Translations under genes and position numbers: made by a program
Notes under the pieces: generated by a model
What the model saw: the letters and a program-made list of their open reading frames with translations, nothing else
Told to the model about the DNA's origin: nothing
The model's database searches: none
Virus record (IMG/VR): IMGVR_UViG_2541047787_000006
Coordinates: 1 to 40,878 of that record
Strand: one strand, 5' to 3'
Source: a virus
Taxonomy: Duplodnaviria > Heunggongvirae > Uroviricota > Caudoviricetes
Length of the DNA stretch: 40,878 bases
Part shown: positions 3,286 to 26,319 of the stretch, one piece after another
How positions within the stretch are numbered: the stretch's first letter is position 1
Layout of the letters: the number at the start of each line of letters is the position of its first letter

Positions 3286-5532
3286 TTATGATATTTTCTT
3301 CCATGCAAATGCTGTAGTGCCAGTTGCTTTATACCACTCAAACTGACCAGCAGTTGTGTCAAGATATTCTTCTCCAATATATCTTGGAACTACATTGTTT
3401 ATTGGGTTTTGCGCCTGTTTCCTAACAAAGAAACGATCATCCCAAAGCTTTTGTGTTTCATAGTTTAGAAATGACATTCCAGCGATGGTTAATAATGGTG
3501 ATCCTGATGATTGATTTGAATTAATATACATACTAATCACATGCCATCCTCGTGATGCTATATGTATACGTGCCGATTTTTGAGTATCATACGATGAGTT
3601 TCTATCTATTGAAAGTGTATTATCTTTAACATTTAAGTTTAATGTTGCAGATGGTTTTGATTTAATATCACTATTAATAATTTCAACAACTCTATCATCA
3701 AGAGAATATTGTGATTGAGGAAGTCCAAAATCAAGCTCTATAGATAAAGCTGAATTTGCCACAATAATGCTTGGGGTGAAAATAAGATCATCCTCATCAG
3801 CGTAGAAGCATATAAACACTTTATTCCCATACTGGCTTGTTTCAACAACATAACCACCAGTGTAACTTGCTAACGGCGGGCTAACCATTGATGGTTTATT
3901 TAACTGAGTTCCCCATGCCCCATCCTTTAGCTTCATAGATGTTTCGAAAGTTCTTACATTAATATTTGTTCCTGATTTAACTTTCGTTGGGTTATTAAAT
4001 TTAGAAAGTAGAAAAGCAAAAACTTTTGCCGCAAGGTATTTATAACCTTCCTCACGAAAATGAACATTATCACTAAATCTTGTAGAGTCGATACCGTAAA
4101 AAACCTCTACACCGTCAAGAACTGGTATCCCGTATTGTTCTCCAATATTAAAAACAGCTTCTCTATAAGCATCAAGAAGCCTTACATTTGCACCATATTT
4201 TTTCTGTGGAGGTGGAGTTATCAAAATTACAGCAGCACCCTTTACAAGTTCTCTCGCAATTATTTTCTTATAATAAAAAATATAGTCTGATATTGACTGG
4301 TAAGGGCTGAATCCCTGTGCAGCATCATTTGTTCCGTACATGATAATAGTTAAATCACTATTAACATTTACATCCCAATCACCCCACCCTAATTTAGTAT
4401 TATCACCTGAATAGCCTTGGTTAATAACATTAATGGATGATGAAAATGCTTGCTGAAGATAGCCTTGCAACGCCTGAGGGTAAGTTGTCGCCGCCCTTGT
4501 TTTATTATGAACACGACCTGATGCTGTAGGAGTTGTATCTGGTGGAGTCGGTGCAATTATAGTGTCTTCTCCATATGTCAGGGAATCACCTCGGCAAACG
4601 ATGGTTATCGCGTCTGAATCACGTGCTACCTTTTCTGCATACTTGCTAAGATTTAGTCTCTGAAGCGCATGCAACTGCTTACCTGGAATTTTCTGGGTTC
4701 CGATATCAACTATGTCATTTTGAACAAGTTGAGAAGCGGAAACACCAGCAATACTTACATCACTGTTTACGTCAGAAAGATCACTGCGTAAAGACGCATC
4801 ACCCACACCTCTCCAAGCGCCAGGACCAACACCACCAGTAGTGGTAGGAGTTGATCCTGGAGGAACTACTTTGGGCAGTGGCCCGTCCCATCTGTAGTAT
4901 TCGCCGTTGCTTTCCCAGAGAAGAACATCGTTAAGATAGATGATGGTATTACCCAACTCAAAAGATTTCTTCGTGTTATAGCCATACAATCCATTTTCTA
5001 AGGTTTCAATAATGGTGCTAAGTATGGTACTAAATTTTGCATAAAGATCATCAGTATATTTTTTTGTAGCAGCATCTTGGGGAAGAGATGGATCACGAAG
5101 ATTTCTAATATAATTTGAAAGCGCGTCATAAAAAATTGCTACGTCATTTGGCTTTCTTAAAGCCAACTTATCATTTCTTAATGATTGTTGAATGAGCATA
5201 GTAAGTTTATCAAACGCATCCTCATGTACCTCAGCGAAGAACTTACCCTGATTACGTAAATCCGTTTCCTGAGTAGCTGGTAGTTCTCGTGATATAGATA
5301 TCTGATGACCGTTAGCCAACGCCTTCGAGAGAATTACATTACCGCCGTTGTACCCTCCTGCTCCGGTGACGATGTAATCTGTATCAAGAACCAGTACGTT
5401 TATATTCTCGTTAATGTCAACAACCTGTACTACCAGATCTGATTTTTTGAAGATCCTAAATTTGTAAGGGAATGTCGTCGTAACACCATTACCAGTGTAT
5501 TCGTTGTGGTTAACTTCGGTTGAGACCGTCAT
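3286..5532 (-). CDS. Tailspike / tail fibre with conserved podovirus N-terminal anchor and C-terminal SGNH (GDSL) hydrolase domain
   Basis: N-terminus EYTGNGVTTTFPYKF resembles the T7 gp17-type anchor; GDSLTYG, GTNDA and DNVHF motifs of SGNH esterases in the middle; AT-rich receptor-binding portion. Confidence 0.85.
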   Translation of the reverse strand: MTVSTEVNHNEYTGNGVTTTFPYKFRIFKKSDLVVQVVDINENINVLVLDTDYIVTGAGGYNGGNVILSKALANGHQISISRELPATQETDLRNQGKFFAEVHEDAFDKLTMLIQQSLRNDKLALRKPNDVAIFYDALSNYIRNLRDPSLPQDAATKKYTDDLYAKFSTILSTIIETLENGLYGYNTKKSFELGNTIIYLNDVLLWESNGEYYRWDGPLPKVVPPGSTPTTTGGVGPGAWRGVGDASLRSDLSDVNSDVSIAGVSASQLVQNDIVDIGTQKIPGKQLHALQRLNLSKYAEKVARDSDAITIVCRGDSLTYGEDTIIAPTPPDTTPTASGRVHNKTRAATTYPQALQGYLQQAFSSSINVINQGYSGDNTKLGWGDWDVNVNSDLTIIMYGTNDAAQGFSPYQSISDYIFYYKKIIARELVKGAAVILITPPPQKKYGANVRLLDAYREAVFNIGEQYGIPVLDGVEVFYGIDSTRFSDNVHFREEGYKYLAAKVFAFLLSKFNNPTKVKSGTNINVRTFETSMKLKDGAWGTQLNKPSMVSPPLASYTGGYVVETSQYGNKVFICFYADEDDLIFTPSIIVANSALSIELDFGLPQSQYSLDDRVVEIINSDIKSKPSATLNLNVKDNTLSIDRNSSYDTQKSARIHIASRGWHVISMYINSNQSSGSPLLTIAGMSFLNYETQKLWDDRFFVRKQAQNPINNVVPRYIGEEYLDTTAGQFEWYKATGTTAFAWKKIS

Positions 5533-5727: not shown

Positions 5728-5985
5728 ATGCAGCAGTATCACTATCCACTGGAAGACGGATTTACCGAAAGGATTCACACGCCGGGAGGCGTCAGGTCAC
5801 TGGTGGAGGGATCGCACTTGATGAAATTACTCCGGGATCTCGATAAGGATGGATTTAATGTCGATGGCCCACTTGCCGAACTGACTGCACTGATTAACTA
5901 CGTCACCAGCTCACAGATGTCTATGCAGGATCTGCAAACACATCTCGACTATTGTGCCGAACAATTACGAAAACAAACCCGGTAA
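5728..5985 (+). CDS. Small protein homologous to the C-terminal domain of the antirepressor at 7373-8029; candidate SOS-induced antirepressor
   Basis: GGAGA RBS 7 nt upstream; product IHTPGGVRSLVEGSHLMKLL..DLQTH aligns with [25 protein letters not shown] of the 7373 protein; the ORF track start at 5710 is TTG without an RBS. Confidence 0.5.
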   Translation: MQQYHYPLEDGFTERIHTPGGVRSLVEGSHLMKLLRDLDKDGFNVDGPLAELTALINYVTSSQMSMQDLQTHLDYCAEQLRKQTR

Positions 5986-5992
5986 ATTTAAA

Positions 5993-6008
5993 GGCCGCAA
6001 GAGCGGCC
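5993..6008. terminator. Hairpin GGCCGC-AAGA-GCGGCC in the 24-bp gap between convergent genes
   Basis: 6-bp GC stem with tetraloop exactly between the stop codons at 5985 and 6010; no long T-run. Confidence 0.4.
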
Positions 6009-6009
6009 A

Positions 6010-6516
6010 TTAACAGTCGTAAAATTCCGGGTCCCACAAACTTGCATCGCGCGGCATGGATTCTAAATTTTTCAGCCGCAAAATTCTGTCACACTCGACA
6101 AGAAGTTTTTGTTTTTGTTCGTCAATTTCTACTTTTTTGTGTGCTGGCTCATCCCAGTAATCCAGAAGAAACGCATGTCGCTCAGACGTTACAAGATAAA
6201 TCACATACACATCACTGGTTGGTATTTTTTTATGCTTGTTGGTGGCCTTGTCTTTCTTCCCGGATGCCCAGTTTTTCCAGCATTGTTCCGTACCGCTCTC
6301 ACCAAACTTGTCAGTATAGTTTCCGATGTTTACGTGAACGTGGCGTATGTGATATTCCAGCATCTCTTTCGGTGGATCCCGAAACAGAGTGTCCTTTCCG
6401 AAATCCTTATGATGACCGTAGCGCCAGTGATCTATGAACGCGTTTTTGATAGGTATTAGCTCAGGGTCCTTCCCAAAAATTCCAGGGTGAACCAACCCCT
6501 GGAATTTATTCAGCAT
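6010..6516 (-). CDS. YafO-like toxin-domain protein (putative mRNA interferase-type toxin), module 1
   Basis: Motifs FGKD..F.DP, RHVHVN, IPTSD, VIYLVT and EPAHK resemble the YafO family as recalled from memory; paralogous to 8331-8876; start ATG at 6516 overlaps the upstream stop (ATGCTGAATAA). Confidence 0.45.
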   Translation of the reverse strand: MLNKFQGLVHPGIFGKDPELIPIKNAFIDHWRYGHHKDFGKDTLFRDPPKEMLEYHIRHVHVNIGNYTDKFGESGTEQCWKNWASGKKDKATNKHKKIPTSDVYVIYLVTSERHAFLLDYWDEPAHKKVEIDEQKQKLLVECDRILRLKNLESMPRDASLWDPEFYDC

Positions 6517-6925
6517 CGTCGTAGAGCTCCTGAGCCATATCTTCGGCAGTGCGTGCAAACATCCTGCGCGAGATTGCATGAGATTTCTCGACGGACATCT
6601 TTGGGACCTCATGCATAACATTTTTGGGAGTTGTGTAATAGCCTATTACAATTTTCACACCTGACTTATGATTAATATCAGCATAATATACTTCTTGTTC
6701 AGACGTTTCACGACGAACATAATCTGCCAGTTTTCCACATTTAAATTCCCCTCCCTGATGTTTTAAAATCTCCTCAACTGCACTATTTTCAGTGAAATAC
6801 CGAATAAGAAATTTCTGTCCAGTCTCTTCAGCATGAGGTATAACAGTATTATTGGAAGCCCGAACAATGGCCTTACTCAATATTTCATGGTCTTTATTTT
6901 TTTCTGATTTCCTCAAATGCTGCAT
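6506..6925 (-). CDS. Upstream partner of toxin-like gene (candidate antitoxin or immunity protein), no recognisable family
   Basis: 139 aa from the ATG at 6925; overlaps the downstream start by 11 nt; C-terminal tail KMSVEKSHAISRRMFARTAEDMAQELYDDAE resembles the tail of the 8177 small ORF. Confidence 0.4.
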   Translation of the reverse strand: MQHLRKSEKNKDHEILSKAIVRASNNTVIPHAEETGQKFLIRYFTENSAVEEILKHQGGEFKCGKLADYVRRETSEQEVYYADINHKSGVKIVIGYYTTPKNVMHEVPKMSVEKSHAISRRMFARTAEDMAQELYDDAE

Positions 6926-6961
6926 TACTGTAGCTCTCTTCGTGTTCACGGGCACCCCCAA

Positions 6962-7372: not shown

Positions 7373-8029
7373 ATGAACGCTCAACTCATCCCCGTATTCA
7401 ACGGCACTATATCTAACGAAACAGCCCTACTTTGTAATGCCCGCGATCTGCACGCTTTTTTAGGTGTTAAAAAGGTGTTTGCAGCATGGATTACAAATCG
7501 CATATCAGAATACGAATTCATTGAAAATCAAGACTATATTTTGCTTTCCAATTTGGGAAAGCAAACATCTGGTAGAGGCGGCCACAACCGCAAAGAGTAC
7601 CACCTTACCCTTGATACAGCCAAAGAGCTGGCGATGGTCGAGCGTAACGAAAAAGGTCGCCAGGTGCGACGCTACTTCATTGAATGCGAGAAACGTTTAA
7701 GACAACAAGAAACAAAAGTGGAGAAGGTCTTGTCAGGCTTCATGCCCGCCATTATGGAGGCGATCAAGCTGGAAGACAAAAAAGAATACAGTGCCCCGCT
7801 GAAGCCCGGCTACCGCAGCCTGATTCATTCTCCGTCTGGTGTTCTCGGCCTGACGGAAAACTCACTGCTGATGAATCTGCTGAACCAGTTACAGGAAGAC
7901 GGGCACGACGTATCGGGCGCGGCGGCGGAGCTGACCACCATGTTCTGCTACATCGTCGGTGTGAGCAAATGCCTGCGTGATATCCAGACCCACGCGGAGT
8001 ACATCAACGACAAGGCTGGGTTCTTCTGA
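7373..8029 (+). CDS. Antirepressor, AntA/AntB-type N-terminal domain plus C-terminal domain shared with the 5728 protein
   Basis: N-terminal [34 protein letters not shown] matches the AntA antirepressor pattern; GGAG RBS at 7361. Confidence 0.7.
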
Positions 8030-8073
8030 CGGGCGGCGGCACAGGGATGTGCCTTTAAATAATTCTGTACAGA

Positions 8074-8116
8074 TTGCAGACTGTGGGTGAATAGCGTACT
8101 ATTACCTCAAGGGTAA
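8074..8116 (+). promoter_or_regulatory. Sigma70-like promoter (TTGCAG-N17-TACTAT) with overlapping operator TTACCTCAAGGGTAA at 8102-8116
   Basis: Same promoter-operator architecture as at 7058 and 35639. Confidence 0.45.
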
Positions 8117-8176
8117 ACGGATTGGTTTCATTTTTATTAATCCGTGTAATGAACTTATGAGATATGAGGTAATGTC

Positions 8177-8356
8177 ATGCGAAACGAAAAATTGCAGATG
8201 CGTAGAGCGCAAGCTGCCGCAAGACGTTCTTTCAATGGAAGCGTAGAGTACGTAAAAGTTACTATGACAAAAGATCACGCAAGTCGCGTATCCAGCGCTT
8301 TCTTTGATTCTCGTAACAATAAGGAAAATTATGAGTTCGTCTGCGTCGCAGAATGA
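8177..8356 (+). CDS. Small 59-aa protein overlapping the start of toxin-like gene (candidate antitoxin), module 2
   Basis: Not in the ORF track (under 60 aa); GAGG RBS at 8166-8169, ATG at 8177; overlaps the 8331 gene by 26 nt; tail KVTMTKDHASRVSSAFF...VAE resembles the C-terminus of the 6506-6925 product. Confidence 0.35.
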   Translation: MRNEKLQMRRAQAAARRSFNGSVEYVKVTMTKDHASRVSSAFFDSRNNKENYEFVCVAE

Positions 8357-8876
8357 TAAAAATCAAATTGTCAGATATAAGGGTCGAGTATTGCATACGC
8401 AAAATTTCTCGGCCCTTTGTGCATCTGATCTTGAGCTGAAGAAAGTATCTGATGCCTTTGCCCAGTATTGGAAAACGGGATACCATCCATCTCTTGGTAA
8501 AGATGCTGCATTTGCTCGTCCGACAGAAATGCTTAAACTAAATGTCAGGCATACTCATGTCGATAACCAAGACTATATTCCAGAAGATAGTGATAAAAAA
8601 CACACTGGTAAAAAATCATCTTGGGATGCATGGAAAAATATAGCGTCTGTACAAGTAAAATGCATACCAACAAGTGATTGCTTTTTAGTTTATTCGGTAA
8701 ATCACAATCGTGATGCGCTGGTTATGTTTTTTGTTGACGCAGATGCTCACAACATAACTGAGCAAGAAGAGTTTAAAGAGGCAGCAATCACTATCAGTTA
8801 TCAATTCTTTGAGAAAACAAAAACAGAACCAATGCCTTTAGAAGAAGATCTTTTTTCTGATAAATGGAAGGAATAG
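8331..8876 (+). CDS. YafO-like toxin-domain protein, module 2 (paralog of 6010-6516)
   Basis: AAGGA RBS 5 nt upstream of the ATG at 8331; shares W.TGYH, LGKD..F.RP.EML, RHTHVD, IPTSD, LVYSV and DAHN motifs with the 6010 product. Confidence 0.45.
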   Translation: MSSSASQNDKNQIVRYKGRVLHTQNFSALCASDLELKKVSDAFAQYWKTGYHPSLGKDAAFARPTEMLKLNVRHTHVDNQDYIPEDSDKKHTGKKSSWDAWKNIASVQVKCIPTSDCFLVYSVNHNRDALVMFFVDADAHNITEQEEFKEAAITISYQFFEKTKTEPMPLEEDLFSDKWKE

Positions 8877-8968
8877 CCCGCGGCGCGGGCTTTTTTGTGG
8901 ACGAAACAAAAGTCAGTGCTACACTCATTAACGCCACATTGAGGTGGCTTATAGATGGAAATTTCACA

Positions 8969-9130
8969 ATGAAAAAAGCATTTGCTGCACTGTTCGTTTT
9001 GTTGTCTCTGGTAGCTTCAACTCAGGCCTTTGCCGGTCGTTGTCAGCACGACAGCGATACTGCCGCTGACGGCTCCCGCTGCGGTGGGCGTTCTGCGGAT
9101 TCCCGCCCGGGCGGCGGTGGCATTCGTTAA
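8969..9130 (+). CDS. Small secreted Cys-containing peptide (53 aa), function unknown
   Basis: Internal ATG at 8969 gives signal peptide MKKAFAALFVLLSLVASTQAFA followed by a Gly/Arg/Cys-rich tail; terminator-like hairpin directly downstream. Confidence 0.35.
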   Translation: MKKAFAALFVLLSLVASTQAFAGRCQHDSDTAADGSRCGGRSADSRPGGGGIR

Positions 9131-9136
9131 AAACAA

Positions 9137-9152
9137 GGCCGCGAAAGCGGCC
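9137..9152. terminator. Hairpin GGCCGC-GAAA-GCGGCC between convergent genes, followed by palindrome GTGACATGTCAC (9154-9165)
   Basis: GC stem with GNRA-like loop; stem nearly identical to the hairpin at 5993-6008. Confidence 0.4.
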
Positions 9153-9166
9153 TGTGACATGTCACG

Positions 9167-9727
9167 CTACATTGATATATGATTCATAAAGTAGCTTAAA
9201 GATTTACTTCCCAGAAAAGAAATTTCTTTTCCTGGATATGTCGCAATAATTGAGCATGACTTATCCCCGTTAGAGGTAACAAATCCTGAATAACCTACTT
9301 GTTCTTTACCATTTTGTTGCTTGGCTAAAAAGTAGAGGTAGCTTATCTTTTTGCCCTCTGGGTAAAACTCTGCCAAACCAGTATCGGTGATTGAATATTT
9401 TATTCTCCCGCCTTGAGTAACGTTTTCCATCTCAAGTTTAGCTATGTCTTTTCTGTTGTATTCAGCATTGATTTTCCTTTCGAAATCAATATTGTTTTCA
9501 AATGAGTAGGAAGCAACAGTCTGAATAGATGGGAACACGTTTATCTGGATGCCTCCACAGTCGGCACAGGTATAAAGGTATGAATCAGATGGAATCCCCA
9601 TAAAAGAAAACTGAGTTACCTTAAATTTATCGCTATCTCCAAAGTATTGAAGTTCGCATTTAACATTTTGCCCTGCAAAAGAAAATGCAGACATCAATAT
9701 TGAAACAAAAAATATAATTGCCTTCAT
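9167..9727 (-). CDS. Secreted or periplasmic protein of unknown function (moron)
   Basis: Signal peptide MKAIIFFVSILMSAFSFA; 4 Cys; markedly AT-rich gene between core-protein gene and cargo island. Confidence 0.55.
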   Translation of the reverse strand: MKAIIFFVSILMSAFSFAGQNVKCELQYFGDSDKFKVTQFSFMGIPSDSYLYTCADCGGIQINVFPSIQTVASYSFENNIDFERKINAEYNRKDIAKLEMENVTQGGRIKYSITDTGLAEFYPEGKKISYLYFLAKQQNGKEQVGYSGFVTSNGDKSCSIIATYPGKEISFLGSKSLSYFMNHISM

Positions 9728-9729
9728 TA

Positions 9730-12282
9730 TTATTTACCTAGCATGAACTGCGATGGTGGGATCAGAAAGTCGTTACCCTGCTCACGCTCAACACGGCGCT
9801 GATAACGCTCAAGAGAGCCTGGGTCAAGGGCATCCTGTATCCGGTTCAATATTAAACCATTCATCGCCGTACGAAGCCAGAACACGTTGAGGAATGGCGT
9901 ATTGTCAAGTGCCGTGCGATACCAGTCACCCAAATCTGCATCCCCTCTCGTGGTCTGCTGGAGCAGCGTGATAATGCTGTCAGCGTTCGATGCTGCTGGC
10001 CCCATTAGCGACGTAACCGGCCCGGCCCCCATGCGGTTGACCTCGCCAAACATGAAGTCACCCAAGATGCCAAGACCGCCCCCCTGAGATGCGGCTGCGA
10101 GAAACGTCTTGGCATCTGCCGGGCGTGGTGTTTGCCCTTTCAGCATGAGTTTTGACTGCATGGAGATATAACCAAACATAGTCGCCCAGACAAAGAGGTT
10201 TGCAGCACCAAGGAAAGCCCCCTTCCCGTTACGTAGCAGCGCATTCGTCAGCGATCCGGTTTTCGACTCACCAAGCCCAGCAGGAATATAACCACGCCCG
10301 AATACTTCGCGTCCTAGTACGTTCTGCATGAAGCTTGCAGTGAACGATTTGTACTGACCAGCGAATCGTATTGCTTCCCCAGCCACCGTTCCTGGCACCG
10401 TGCCCATCTTCATAAACGCCTGCGTGCGATCGCCAGGCTCTGACATGGCGATATTCAGGCGGTCAAGGATGTAGCCGCGCAACTGCCCTTCCAATTGATC
10501 GCGTGCGTCAGCGATAGCGCGCTGCGTTGGTTTGATCCCCTTACTCTCTACATAACCGGCAATCACTTCGTCAGGCACGCCGCGGATGCCGCTGGTCGTC
10601 ATGAACTTACGACCTTCGCTATCGGCCATGTCCATGTTGCGAAAAATTTCCCACTCACGTTCGCCAATACCGTGCATATCCAGCACGCGTCGCAGGTCTT
10701 CCGGTAGACGCGCATGAGACTGGTCAGCATTCTTTGCAAGCCAGTTGGTTATCATCATGGCGTTGCTGTTGCGACCGCTCTCGGTCCAGAAGTTCATGAG
10801 GTTGTACTTAAAGAAAAGCTGCTGCGCGCGACCAAGCTTTCCATTCAGCGTGTCATCACCAGATATGCGTCGGATGATTTCCTGCGTCATGGAGTCGGAA
10901 TAAACTCCGATAGAGGAAAGGATCTCTTTCTGCTCCGCGCTGTTGTAACGCGTGAAGCGGCCTCTCATAGCACCAAGCAACGCCTGCATAAAATTCTGCC
11001 CTTGGTAGCGCATCTCGGTAGCGGCGATAGGCACGTCGTTAAACGATGAGATTACCGCGCCACCAAGTTGGCTCATACGCAACCAGCCGCGTACAGCCGC
11101 CGACGCATTGGCCCAGCCTACGCTGCCAGGAATATTTAGCGAGCCGTCAACCTGCGGCATTACGGTACGGTTAATGCGACGCACCTTCGTCATGTAGTCA
11201 GCCAACGCTGCCGGTCTTCCGGATTTGCTGATATCTTCAGCAATGGCGTCCGTCAGGTACTTAAACATGTTCTGTGGGTTAGTGCCCAGTACGCGCATCA
11301 TGCCCGTTGTGCGGGCAGCGCTGTTTAAGCCACCAAACAGCGCTTCTCGCAGGCTGCCGGTGCCGAATTGCTGGTTGTACTCGTGCCACGAGATACCATC
11401 TTTGAAGTGCAAAATTCGCTCTTGGCTGGCGCGTTTAGCTGCGTTCGCCGATCCCTTAAAGCCATTCATCCAATCGGGCTTTTCAGATGTAAGATGCACG
11501 CCGGAAGCCAGCCCGTTATAAATGTTACGCATGAACTGCTCGCGGTCAGCCACGCCGTCAAAAGTGCGCTCATCAAGGCGCGGGAGAATAGCATTTCGCC
11601 ATGCTTCATAACCTGCGGCGCGGATCTTCATGATGTCGTGTGACTGGCGCACTATATATCCCGGCTCTTTGCGTATCCATGCCCCGGCGCGGTTCTCATC
11701 AATGCGCGCAGTTTCCTGCCATTTCATGATGATTTGTGCAGCGCTTACGGATTGCTTTGTCATACCGTCAGTTGACTGCCCGCGCCCTATGCGCCACATT
11801 GCATCGGCAATTTCCCGGTCATTGCTGCCGCTGGCGATGAATTGCACCAGCCCGGCACGGTCAAAATCGTAGTTGATACCGGAATGATACTTGCCGCGCA
11901 GTTGCGCCACCTCCGAAGATACCGACCGGCGGGCGCCGGTACGCGCATCGTTGCGGCCAACCAGCATTGCTTCAAGCCCGATATCCGGGCGGTCTTTCCA
12001 GATAGTACGAAGCTCTCTAAGTCGTTGTGCGGCAATACGGGCGTTGATTGCCTTATTGCGAGCCTCAATCTGTTTTGCCAGCATATCGGCATTGCTCAGT
12101 TCTTCCGCTGCGCGCATCGCGGCCTCTTCCAGAGACAGCGCCTCATTGGTCGCCAGAATTCGCCTAGTGGTGTCGTTCATGTCACGCACCAGCGACTCCA
12201 TCTCATCGGAAGAAAGCTCGCGACCAGCGGCAGCATTTACACTGCGCTCGCACTGCGTCAAAAATTCGTTTGCTGCCATCAC
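9730..12282 (-). CDS. Large internal virion (ejection) protein
   Basis: 850 aa; last gene of the internal core block in T7-like gene order; no recognisable enzymatic motif. Confidence 0.55.
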   Translation of the reverse strand: MMAANEFLTQCERSVNAAAGRELSSDEMESLVRDMNDTTRRILATNEALSLEEAAMRAAEELSNADMLAKQIEARNKAINARIAAQRLRELRTIWKDRPDIGLEAMLVGRNDARTGARRSVSSEVAQLRGKYHSGINYDFDRAGLVQFIASGSNDREIADAMWRIGRGQSTDGMTKQSVSAAQIIMKWQETARIDENRAGAWIRKEPGYIVRQSHDIMKIRAAGYEAWRNAILPRLDERTFDGVADREQFMRNIYNGLASGVHLTSEKPDWMNGFKGSANAAKRASQERILHFKDGISWHEYNQQFGTGSLREALFGGLNSAARTTGMMRVLGTNPQNMFKYLTDAIAEDISKSGRPAALADYMTKVRRINRTVMPQVDGSLNIPGSVGWANASAAVRGWLRMSQLGGAVISSFNDVPIAATEMRYQGQNFMQALLGAMRGRFTRYNSAEQKEILSSIGVYSDSMTQEIIRRISGDDTLNGKLGRAQQLFFKYNLMNFWTESGRNSNAMMITNWLAKNADQSHARLPEDLRRVLDMHGIGEREWEIFRNMDMADSEGRKFMTTSGIRGVPDEVIAGYVESKGIKPTQRAIADARDQLEGQLRGYILDRLNIAMSEPGDRTQAFMKMGTVPGTVAGEAIRFAGQYKSFTASFMQNVLGREVFGRGYIPAGLGESKTGSLTNALLRNGKGAFLGAANLFVWATMFGYISMQSKLMLKGQTPRPADAKTFLAAASQGGGLGILGDFMFGEVNRMGAGPVTSLMGPAASNADSIITLLQQTTRGDADLGDWYRTALDNTPFLNVFWLRTAMNGLILNRIQDALDPGSLERYQRRVEREQGNDFLIPPSQFMLGK

Positions 12283-13976
12283 ATCCCCCGGTTAATCATA
12301 CAGGCGGCAAATGCCCGGAAAGCGTTGCTCATGCTATTGTCGCTGGCGTCGGCACGAATATCATTGAGTTTCTGGCGCAACGTGGTCGCAAGATCAGGGT
12401 TATCGACAGCGATATCGTCAAGCAGGGCGTTACTCAGGTTGAGCTCGTTATCAAGGTCTGCAGCGGCAGCGGTAATTTCATGATCTGCCTTTTGCGTTTC
12501 TTGATAAACCCGATCGGCTGTTTCGCTTGCTGGGCTGGCCGTTTCATCAACCTGCCGTGCCGGGTTCTGTATGCGATGGATGGCGCGTTCACGCAGTGCC
12601 GGTTTGTGCAGTTCATAGAAGGGCTCAACATCTGGGCTACGTCCTTCCATCATGTGTGCCAGCGCAGCGCGATACGCCTGCTGGTTCACGTTCCAGTCAG
12701 CATCCCTGATGGCGCTTGCGGCAGTGCGAACTGCGCCAGCGACCGGCGACATCTGCATGCCGTCCAGGATCTGCTGCGCACGCTCGGAAATGGTGACTTT
12801 CAGGTCGTCGGGGATCTCGCCGCGGGAAATCTGAGACTGGCGCCAGCGCGCCTGCTCTGCTGTCGCGTTCTGCTCCAGCGATGTGTTGATCTCCTGATTG
12901 CGTGCAGCGATGGCGTCTTTCTCGGCCTGAATCTCTTTCAGTGCCCTAGAGCGCGCATCCTTAAACTTCATCCGCTGCCCCTGATACTTTTTGGTGCGCT
13001 GCTGCAGCGTCGCATCAAGCGAGTCAGCATGACGTTGATTAGCCGCAAGCTCGGCACGCAGGTCGGCAACGTTACCGATCTGCCCGCTCTGTAACTCCTG
13101 CTGGCGCGCCATATAGTCAGGAACCACGTCGTCATAAGCCCGGCTGTATGCGTAGCTCTCCGCTTCACTGGAAATGGCCGCCGCCAGATCTGCGTTAGCG
13201 CCAACCTCAGGGATATTCACGCCCGCCGGAATGTTGTCAGGCGTTATCACCGGGGTTGGCTGCGCATCGACAGAAAACGCCGGGGACTCTCCCGTTGCAG
13301 CATCGGGAACGCGACGCGGTCGCACGATATCGGCGATAAGGCCGCCGCCGGCATGCATTAGACCGCCAGCCATCGTGTTAAAGAAAGTACTTTCCAACGC
13401 GTTGCTATAGGTGAAGTCGTCACCTTCCGCCGCCGCTGCCAGCCCGGTAAGCGGCACGGTCACCACCGCCTGCGCTGCCCCCATGCGTGCACCAGCAACA
13501 AATCGCTCGCCAAATCGGCCAAGCACAGAAGCCGCCTTTGCTTCTCCAGCGAACGGAACCAGCGCCAGCGCCACGTTACCAGGATCTGCCATTGAACCAG
13601 CTAGGCTGGCTGCGAAATTAAGCGGCGTGGCTACCCACCCGCTCGGTGACGACATCGCGATCTGCTGGCGTGCCAGAGAATCTTTGCGTTCGGCAATAAC
13701 ATGATCGAGAAAAGCCTGCGTAACGCCAGAATCTGGCACGTTTATGCTCTTTACGCCGTACTGCTTCAGGAGCTCATCCGCTTCCTGCTTACTGATAACT
13801 GTAGAGTTTGGGTCATTCGCCAGCGAGTCGGCCTGCGCAAAGCGGTAGCCGGACATGACCGGCCCCTCTTCAAATCCCTGCTTAAGGGAAGAAAGCAGCG
13901 ATTCGCCAAGCCCTGCTGGCGCGTTGCCAATTGGCTGGTTAATTCCCTGTCCCGGATCATCTGTGTAAATTGGCAT
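12279..13976 (-). CDS. Internal virion protein
   Basis: 565 aa, Ala/Gln-rich with coiled-coil segments; position within the core-protein block. Confidence 0.5.
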   Translation of the reverse strand: MPIYTDDPGQGINQPIGNAPAGLGESLLSSLKQGFEEGPVMSGYRFAQADSLANDPNSTVISKQEADELLKQYGVKSINVPDSGVTQAFLDHVIAERKDSLARQQIAMSSPSGWVATPLNFAASLAGSMADPGNVALALVPFAGEAKAASVLGRFGERFVAGARMGAAQAVVTVPLTGLAAAAEGDDFTYSNALESTFFNTMAGGLMHAGGGLIADIVRPRRVPDAATGESPAFSVDAQPTPVITPDNIPAGVNIPEVGANADLAAAISSEAESYAYSRAYDDVVPDYMARQQELQSGQIGNVADLRAELAANQRHADSLDATLQQRTKKYQGQRMKFKDARSRALKEIQAEKDAIAARNQEINTSLEQNATAEQARWRQSQISRGEIPDDLKVTISERAQQILDGMQMSPVAGAVRTAASAIRDADWNVNQQAYRAALAHMMEGRSPDVEPFYELHKPALRERAIHRIQNPARQVDETASPASETADRVYQETQKADHEITAAAADLDNELNLSNALLDDIAVDNPDLATTLRQKLNDIRADASDNSMSNAFRAFAACMINRGM

Positions 13977-26242: not shown

Positions 26243-26319
26243 GTGGCATTAGCTCAGTTGGACAGAGCAACCGCCTTCTAAGCGGTTGGTCGCAGGTTCG
26301 AATCCTGCATGCCACGCCA
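26243..26319 (+). tRNA. tRNA-Arg, anticodon UCU
   Basis: Cloverleaf read by hand: acceptor GTGGCAT/ATGCCAC, D-arm GCTC..GAGC, anticodon stem ACCGC/GCGGT with loop CTTCTAA, T-arm GCAGG-TTCGAAT-CCTGC, discriminator G and CCA. Confidence 0.85.

Follow-up and report, generated by a model that had tools for sequence, protein, structure and literature searches.

The sequence analyzed here is the 40,878-nucleotide viral record IMGVR_UViG_2541047787_000006, henceforth referred to in its entirety as the window, which is an epsilon15/phiV10-like (Uetakevirus-type) E. coli prophage. The genes of interest lie between positions 8969 and 9727 and comprise a small open reading frame (ORF) for a product of 53 amino acids (aa) and, facing it on the opposite strand, a gene for a 186-aa protein. 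Both are annotated coding sequences (CDS) in RefSeq (WP_000708858.1 and WP_000643933.1). An initial annotation, made from the sequence alone, had described them as a convergent pair of AT-rich genes for secreted proteins. The convergent arrangement was confirmed, with both ORFs running into a common hairpin, as was the description of the products as a signal-peptide-bearing peptide rich in Cys, Gly and Arg and a protein with four Cys, the latter having a signal-peptide-like N-terminus. The low GC content ascribed to both genes applies to the 186-aa gene (35%) but not to the small ORF (58%); the corresponding values are 49% for the window and 55% for the 850-aa gene preceding the 186-aa gene. 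All positions are given in Table 1.

Table 1 Positions of the two convergent genes, their signals and the surrounding features in the window.
Feature	Position	Strand	Remarks
Small ORF, 53 aa	8969-9130	+	RefSeq CDS; predicted cleavage between MKKAFAALFVLLSLVASTQAFA and GRCQHDSDTAADGSRCGGRSADSRPGGGGIR
Small ORF, codons 1-22	8969-9034	+	Predicted Sec signal peptide
Small ORF, mature 31-aa peptide	9035-9127	+	
186-aa ORF	9167-9727	-	RefSeq CDS; predicted cleavage between MKAIIFFVSILMSAFSFA and GQNVKC
186-aa ORF, residues 1-18	9674-9727	-	Predicted signal peptide
Intrinsic terminator	8875-8891	+	7-bp GC stem, then T-run; directly after YafO-like stop; terminator scan and fold
-10-like box TACACT	8920-8925	+	Inferred promoter of small ORF, ~45 nt 5' of ATG; from alignment
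5'-UTR hairpin GCCAC-N6-GUGGC	8933-8948	+	Followed by CUACACA-like motif
Weak Shine-Dalgarno GGA	8957-8959	+	5' of small ORF
Hairpin AGGCCGC-GAAA-GCGGCCT	9136-9153	both genes	Between the convergent ORFs; -17.9 kcal/mol, z -2.9
Perfect 12-bp palindrome GTGACATGTCAC	9154-9165		Abuts the preceding hairpin
850-aa internal virion/ejection-type protein gene (epsilon15 gp17-like)	9730-12282	-	Third gene of ejection/internal-protein module
565-aa protein gene	12279-13976	-	Second gene of module
SLT-domain protein gene, 873 aa	13978-16599	-	First gene of late three-gene module
YafO-like ORF 1	8304-8876	+	Cargo island; Pfam YafO_toxin match, E 1e-5
YafO-like ORF 2	6010-6621	-	Cargo island; 31% identical to YafO-like ORF 1
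Small ORF upstream of and overlapping a YafO-like ORF	8177-8356	+	Could be an antitoxin
Small ORF upstream of and overlapping a YafO-like ORF	6506-6961	-	Could be an antitoxin
Tailspike/tail-fibre gene	3286-5532	-	38% GC
tRNA-Arg (anticodon TCT) gene	26243-26319	+	Prophage-borne

Both products look exported by inspection and hydropathy. Each has a single strongly hydrophobic stretch, located at the N-terminus and 10–15 residues in length, together with a basic n-region and small residues at positions -3/-1, and neither has a lipobox; the export-signal features are kept in all homologues of both proteins. The predicted signal peptide of the small ORF product ends in AFA and would release a mature peptide containing 8 Gly, 5 Arg and 2 Cys, which carries a C25-x12-C38 loop plus the motif DGSRCGGRSADSRPGG and can be condensed to C-x12-C-GGRSA-x-SRPGG. 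In an alignment of 26 enterobacterial members, residues 23–49 are nearly invariant and the signal peptide is variable, its sequence drifting while its character is kept. The residues C25, A32, G35, S36, R37, C38, G39, G40, R41, S42, R46 and G49 are invariant family-wide.

Fifteen copies from different genera were compared codon by codon. The proportion of synonymous differences (pS) was ~0.7, at which synonymous sites are near saturation, and the ratio of the nonsynonymous proportion to it (pN/pS) was 0.19 in the mature part and 0.43 in the signal peptide. Because the mature part is this constrained while synonymous sites are near saturation, the comparison indicates strong purifying selection on the mature peptide at the protein level, and not on an RNA or DNA element. 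Moreover, from Enterobacterales to Mesorhizobium and Methylobacterium the motif always lies in frame behind an export signal or a lipobox. By this codon evidence the small ORF is a real gene, more than a chance ORF. The contrary explanation, in which the ORF is non-functional as a protein and its conservation reflects an RNA or terminator element or recent spread, could appeal to its very short length and weak Shine-Dalgarno sequence, to the conserved RNA hairpin upstream and to the terminator hairpin directly downstream. It is the least probable of the explanations considered and was judged excluded, given the near-invariant mature peptide between genera, the signal peptide that varies yet keeps its character and the in-frame motif; an Rfam scan of window positions 8000–10000 also gave no match.

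The small peptide belongs to a family of at least 1320 clusters across Proteobacteria, as counted by profile search, whose range includes Pseudomonas, Mesorhizobium and Methylobacterium. Within E. coli, the small-ORF region was present in 422–532 of 5426 complete genomes (about 8–10%). The product matches phrog_14503 (E 2e-40; ‘membrane associated protein’, moron category) and phrog_3117, and is named ‘transmembrane anchored protein’ by NCBI. No Pfam or NCBIfam model and no PDB relative was found for it, and a literature search on the family returned no paper. In six Mesorhizobium loci the sequence C-x12-C-GGRSAESRPGG forms the C-terminus of lipobox-bearing, lipoprotein-like proteins of ~110 aa. 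Members of the family are encoded on alphaproteobacterial chromosomes, and some of these loci are not phage-like. In one of the Mesorhizobium loci (L026, ~5800–6153), the module-bearing gene overlaps the start of a gene whose product resembles, by eye, a secreted thermonuclease. An Excalibur/EF-hand-like calcium loop (DxDxxxDG) was considered for the small peptide and set aside as speculative, because D30 is conserved only within Enterobacterales and Pfam offers no matching model.

The small ORF sits in a block (window 8875–9166) that is common, at 97–99% identity, to phages with different flanking genes. The intrinsic terminator that follows the YafO-like ORF marks the 5′ edge of this block. 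Between the terminator and the start codon, the putative promoter of the small ORF is represented by the -10-like box, whose TAnnnT pattern is kept in 12 of 13 aligned gammaproteobacterial copies (as TACAAT, TAAACT, TATGAT, TACGCT and others), the Tolumonas copy being the sole exception. A crude sigma-70 scan did not flag the box at 8920–8925. A hairpin of 4–6 bp in the 5′ untranslated region (UTR) occurs at the same place in 11 of the 13 copies, namely the window and ten others, with differing stems (GCCGUC/GAUGGC, CGCCGC/GGCGG and CUGC/GCAG, for example). Its z-scores are individually modest (-0.5 to -2.6), and the hairpins were compared sequence by sequence since the MAFFT alignment misplaces some of them, for which reason formal covariation counts are not given. 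The hairpin may serve as a stabiliser of the mRNA 5′ end or as a regulatory element.

On the 3′ side, the hairpin between the convergent ORFs has a U-run on the minus strand (the late operon) only, so that the 186-aa gene ends at a proper intrinsic terminator and the small ORF at a hairpin lacking a U-tract. A terminator is annotated at the homologous place in phiV10. The abutting palindrome, which may bind a protein or form another small hairpin, is also found 3′ of the small ORF in a Klebsiella phage (L005), a K. pneumoniae genome and Buttiauxella, and is absent from Klebsiella phage ST512-KPC3phi13.3.

Taken as a unit, the terminator, -10-like box, 5′ hairpin, ORF and downstream hairpin describe a self-contained cassette of the moron type, in which promoter activity is inferred from the sequence. 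Several prophage types carry the cassette at the ends of operons. It follows the holin-endolysin-spanin lysis cassette in Enterobacter and Franconibacter, precedes the lysis cassette in Rouxiella, and converges on the end of the virion operon in Pectobacterium. Among related phages it is present in TL-2011b, phiv142-3, EC.W1-9 and Klebsiella phages and absent from phiV10. The likeness to known phage morons (lambda bor/lom, HK97 gp15) therefore lies in a terminator-flanked unit of ~290 bp at operon ends, which differs in composition from its flanks and is present or absent among related genomes. It differs from them in that its family also exists outside phages and that its promoter and lysogen expression are putative. 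The possibility that the small ORF is an antitoxin or partner of the adjoining YafO-like toxin was rejected, as a terminator lies between the two and the small ORF mostly occurs without YafO.

The 186-aa gene was found in 56 of the same 5426 E. coli genomes, making the small ORF roughly eight times commoner. Hafnia, K. michiganensis and E. coli F719 carry the 186-aa gene but lack the small ORF, and the small ORF adjoins other genes in the position of the 186-aa gene and is found in other prophage types. Because each gene occurs without the other, and at very different frequencies, they are two independent accessory genes that happen to share a terminator hairpin, and not a functional pair. Their adjacency in the window, convergent orientation, predicted export and common hairpin would be in keeping with a two-component secreted system in which both act jointly; the distribution already contradicts such a system, which was considered very improbable and judged excluded. 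The term ‘pair’ in the initial annotation was accordingly dropped. Its placement of both genes in the cargo island holds for the small ORF but not for the 186-aa gene, which is the apparent last cistron of the adjoining operon. Its comparison to prophage morons is apt insofar as both genes are accessory, being present in some related phages and absent from others, and the small ORF is moron-like; the 186-aa gene is bound to a gene module, as described below. Both products do appear unrelated to virion and lysis functions, with Pfam, NCBIfam and PADLOC searches returning nothing meaningful and PHROG matches being confined to families without an assigned function. Weak matches to HxsA3, NlpE, T5 Llp, Spackle and PhrK cover signal peptides only and were rejected as chance.

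The predicted signal peptide of the 186-aa protein ends in SFA, and the remainder contains no hydrophobic segment (maximum KD(9) 1.23). The leader follows the canonical n-h-c layout in every homologue, again with small residues at -3/-1, although its sequence is poorly conserved. The protein has exactly four Cys (C24, C54, C57 and C158), of which C54-x2-C57 forms a CxxC motif. All four are among the 17 invariant columns of the family alignment, to which five divergent members were added. Since homologues down to 29% identity keep these columns, the comparison indicates that the 186-aa ORF is more than a chance ORF. The family is small and narrowly distributed. It comprises 17 close clusters, all from Enterobacterales, and an exhaustive HMMER search of 1.84 billion representatives yielded 8 clusters at 50% identity. 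The only PHROG match is phrog_11983, which carries no function. A tblastn search of 50,697 phage records gave no match, likely because no isolated phage has the gp17-like allele of the window (best match 49% identical).

The profile and structure searches suggested by the initial annotation assigned neither protein to a Pfam or PDB family and provided a modelled fold for the 186-aa protein. The AlphaFold model, whose input included the five divergent members, reached a pLDDT of 86.8 and a pTM of 0.81; with only the 14 close homologues, the pLDDT was 44. In this model the leader is a detached low-confidence helix and the mature domain (~168 aa) adopts a Mog1/PsbP-like alpha/beta fold, an alpha-beta-alpha sandwich superposable on PsbP/Mog1, in agreement with Foldseek. 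A BFVD structure search gave only two weak lipoprotein matches. The protein matched none of the clan's Pfam families searched (PsbP, Mog1, DUF1795, Tli4_C and LpqN) at E values up to 1, and a PDB profile search gave nothing relevant.

The ATG of the 186-aa gene lies 2 nt past the stop codon of the 850-aa gene and no sigma-70-like site was found on its strand within 1.9 kb upstream, on which grounds the gene appears to be the final cistron of the late operon, which would end at the sole good terminator. The 850-aa protein matches phrog_684 (‘virion structural protein’), and its distant relatives are annotated as internal virion protein. In 8 of 9 contexts examined, a 186-aa homologue lies 2–24 nt behind an 845–855-aa gp17-like gene of the same three-gene module. 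The syntenic homologues (34–74% identity) come from Hafnia, K. michiganensis, three metagenomic lineages and two further genome assemblies, and their downstream neighbours differ each time (tailspike, Arc/Ant, AlpA, tail fibre plus chaperone, and YafO). The gp17-like allele was found in 63 E. coli genomes, 56 of which carry the 186-aa gene. Gene order thus ties the 186-aa gene to one type of ejection/internal-protein module and it is not a free-floating moron. In one syntenic locus (L040) the 186-aa protein is 45% identical and the gp17-like protein 87%, indicating that the 186-aa protein diverges faster than its neighbour.

The slot that separates the terminator from the last internal virion protein gene was also examined in seven related loci and is a hot spot for unrelated small genes. 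Its content differs in phages that have the other gp17 type or more distant gp17 homologues. There, phiV10 has a 46-aa two-helix membrane protein (p21), phiv142-3 and BUCT711 a three-helix membrane protein of 98 aa, EC.W1-9 a signal-peptide protein of 283 aa and ST512-KPC3phi13.3 a protein of 204 aa devoid of a signal peptide. In Stenotrophomonas phage BUCT708, whose gp17-like protein is 49% identical, the occupant is an uncharacterised 95-aa ORF. In E. coli PF9285, a 123-aa protein with its own signal peptide follows a gp17-like protein that is 99% identical. The slot is empty in Pseudomonas phage Ab31, where the gp17-like gene leads directly to the tail fibre. Membrane or signal-peptide proteins make up four of the six alternative occupants, and Pfam gave no match for any of the six. 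The absence of a slot gene in Ab31, its replacement in PF9285 and the predicted signal peptide show that the 186-aa protein does not behave as a conserved virion structural or ejection protein.

Location, predicted export and modelled fold suggest a possible role in superinfection exclusion or host interaction. The explanation preferred here, with somewhat less than even confidence, is that the 186-aa protein is an envelope-acting accessory protein directed at the incoming ejection apparatus and positionally analogous to P22 sieA. The four invariant Cys fit an oxidising compartment, where DsbA would probably form two disulfides in the exported protein. Given its predicted export and its genetic attachment to the ejection module, the protein could meet ejection proteins only in the periplasm, during infection. 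It would most likely act there as a soluble binder or neutraliser of the ejection proteins released by related phages, with the SLT-domain protein and its two partners as targets and the SLT-domain protein as the obvious candidate. Once these are neutralised, the trans-envelope DNA conduit could not form. Co-transcription with the late operon would place this action perhaps mainly in lytic growth and not in the quiescent lysogen.

A rather unlikely explanation is that the 186-aa protein serves lysogenic conversion or the host envelope and has no connection with phage entry, the end of the operon being a convenient insertion slot for its gene. It could, for example, bind a host periplasmic protein, a lipid or a cell-wall component, like LpqN and DcrB, which share the fold. 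The unrelated genes occupying the slot in related phages fit this explanation, as do the 35% GC content, which indicates foreign origin, and the lipid- and envelope-biogenesis proteins in the fold family. However, a convenient slot fails to explain why the position behind the module is kept down to 34% identity while the downstream neighbours all change, and it leaves unexplained why the family is hardly found elsewhere.

The same gene order and apparent co-transcription with the ejection genes would also fit an assembly helper. In that case the leader would remain uncleaved and the protein would be a cytoplasmic Eag/SciW-like chaperone, shielding hydrophobic segments of the ejection proteins during assembly, or a minor packaged protein. 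This was considered improbable. The leader is canonical in every homologue while poorly conserved in sequence, it is detached from the modelled domain, and the four invariant Cys suit an oxidising compartment. The gene is furthermore dispensable in phages with homologous modules, as seen in Ab31 and in PF9285.

P22 sieA is flanked by the last ejection-protein gene on one side and the tailspike gene on the other; it acts by blocking injection, and mutations that escape it fall in ejection proteins (PMC10883804). The 186-aa gene has the corresponding position and is likewise present in some related phages only. SieA acts at the envelope step with a specificity set by ejection proteins (PMC10883804), which for the 186-aa protein is proposed only. 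SieA, a polytopic protein of the inner membrane, is expressed from a promoter of its own and carries a cytoplasmic FxRYPxEAxxFNK motif, whereas the 186-aa protein is a soluble, predicted exported alpha/beta protein that lacks transmembrane segments beyond its leader; no promoter was detected for its gene, and the motif is absent from its sequence. The two phage lineages also differ (P22-like and epsilon15-like), and family searches show no sequence similarity.

The type VI secretion system (T6SS) periplasmic immunity proteins Tsi3, Tli4/TplEi and Tli5/PA3488 have the Mog1/PsbP-like fold seen in the 186-aa model. They neutralise an incoming envelope-degrading protein, Tse3 being a muramidase, and the module preceding the 186-aa gene starts with an SLT-domain protein. 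Unlike these proteins, the 186-aa protein has no T6SS context and no sequence similarity to them, and no cognate effector forms a toxin-immunity pair beside its gene, where the neighbours are phage virion genes. In the wider PsbP/Mog1/DUF1795 superfamily (DcrB, SciW, EagT6), DcrB is a periplasmic envelope protein required for infection by phages C1 and C6. DcrB has a lipobox, which the 186-aa protein lacks, and the 186-aa protein is set apart from the superfamily by its four invariant Cys, including the CxxC, and by the lack of a clan Pfam match. T4 Spackle, which inhibits the incoming tail lysozyme, as well as Cor and Llp are Sec-exported phage proteins that act against superinfecting phage in the periplasm or on the outer membrane. 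Spackle differs in being all-helical, and its Pfam model matched neither window protein; Cor and Llp differ in being lipoproteins. T4 Sp is listed among DNA-injection inhibitors (PMC11436027).

Several observations weigh against an exclusion role. A sigma-70-like site on the strand of the 186-aa gene was not found within 1.9 kb upstream of its ATG. This makes lysogen expression, which classical exclusion needs, doubtful; it suggests action during lytic growth and counts against exclusion of the classical kind. As a generic binding scaffold that occurs in photosystem subunits, chaperones and lipid-binding proteins, the Mog1/PsbP fold is by itself not evidence of immunity. Pfam, NCBIfam, PDB and PADLOC searches revealed no sequence-level link to any immunity or exclusion family. 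The signal peptides were called by eye and hydropathy and not by a trained predictor. One homologue (P0080; 29% identity), encoded at positions 861–1421 of a 1.5-kb contig too short to judge its context, adjoins a SymE toxin gene and is not visibly in the module. With regard to the small peptide, its occurrence in alphaproteobacterial loci outside phages favours a general role in the envelope over a phage-specific one.

For the small peptide, DsbA would probably form a single disulfide after export, and the product would most likely be expressed in the lysogen and bind a conserved envelope target as a disulfide-looped ligand in the periplasm. A broader proposal covers both families jointly and is rather unlikely. 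According to it, the 31-residue C-x12-C-GGRSA-x-SRPGG peptide would define a widespread, unnamed family of periplasmic mini-proteins with a conserved envelope target, spread as a cassette by phages. The 186-aa family would be an unrecognised class of soluble periplasmic exclusion or immunity proteins with a disulfide-stabilised Mog1/PsbP fold, co-evolving with and neutralising the ejectosome of epsilon15-like podophages, which consists of the SLT-domain protein and its two partners. This new soluble ejectosome-neutralising class would correspond, in the periplasm, to P22 SieA, and its structural likeness to the T6SS immunity proteins would reflect either convergence or relatedness. Should binding of the 186-aa protein to ejection proteins be borne out, the protein would offer a tractable soluble handle on the trans-periplasmic DNA conduit of short-tailed phages and would represent a second, mechanistically different exclusion system at the genomic position of P22 sieA. 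The target of the small peptide, once learned, would annotate many genes at once. As matters stand, these are two ordinary ‘hypothetical’ prophage accessory genes with an anatomy better defined than before, and they fall into known kinds, namely phage accessory or moron genes and, for the larger product, a Mog1/PsbP-fold periplasmic protein.

Several complete E. coli chromosomes contain prophages that match window positions 8300–10300 at 99.4% identity, and the region gives partial matches to phages TL-2011b, phiv142-3, EC.W1-9 and phiV10. The neighbours annotated in the matching E. coli prophages are a GH19 endolysin, holins, a tail fibre, Bro/Ant-type proteins and a YafO-family toxin, together with three large ‘hypothetical’ virion genes and an SLT-domain protein. 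The window has two YafO-like ORFs, each with a small ORF upstream and overlapping that could be an antitoxin; a Pfam search of these putative partners gave no matches. One or other of the two YafO-like pairs is carried by TL-2011b and EC.W1-9. A tRNA-Arg gene is also carried by the prophage (Table 1). Conservation of the tailspike/tail-fibre gene with its relatives is confined to the N-terminal ~160 residues (57–83% identity), a pattern typical of receptor-binding domain swapping.

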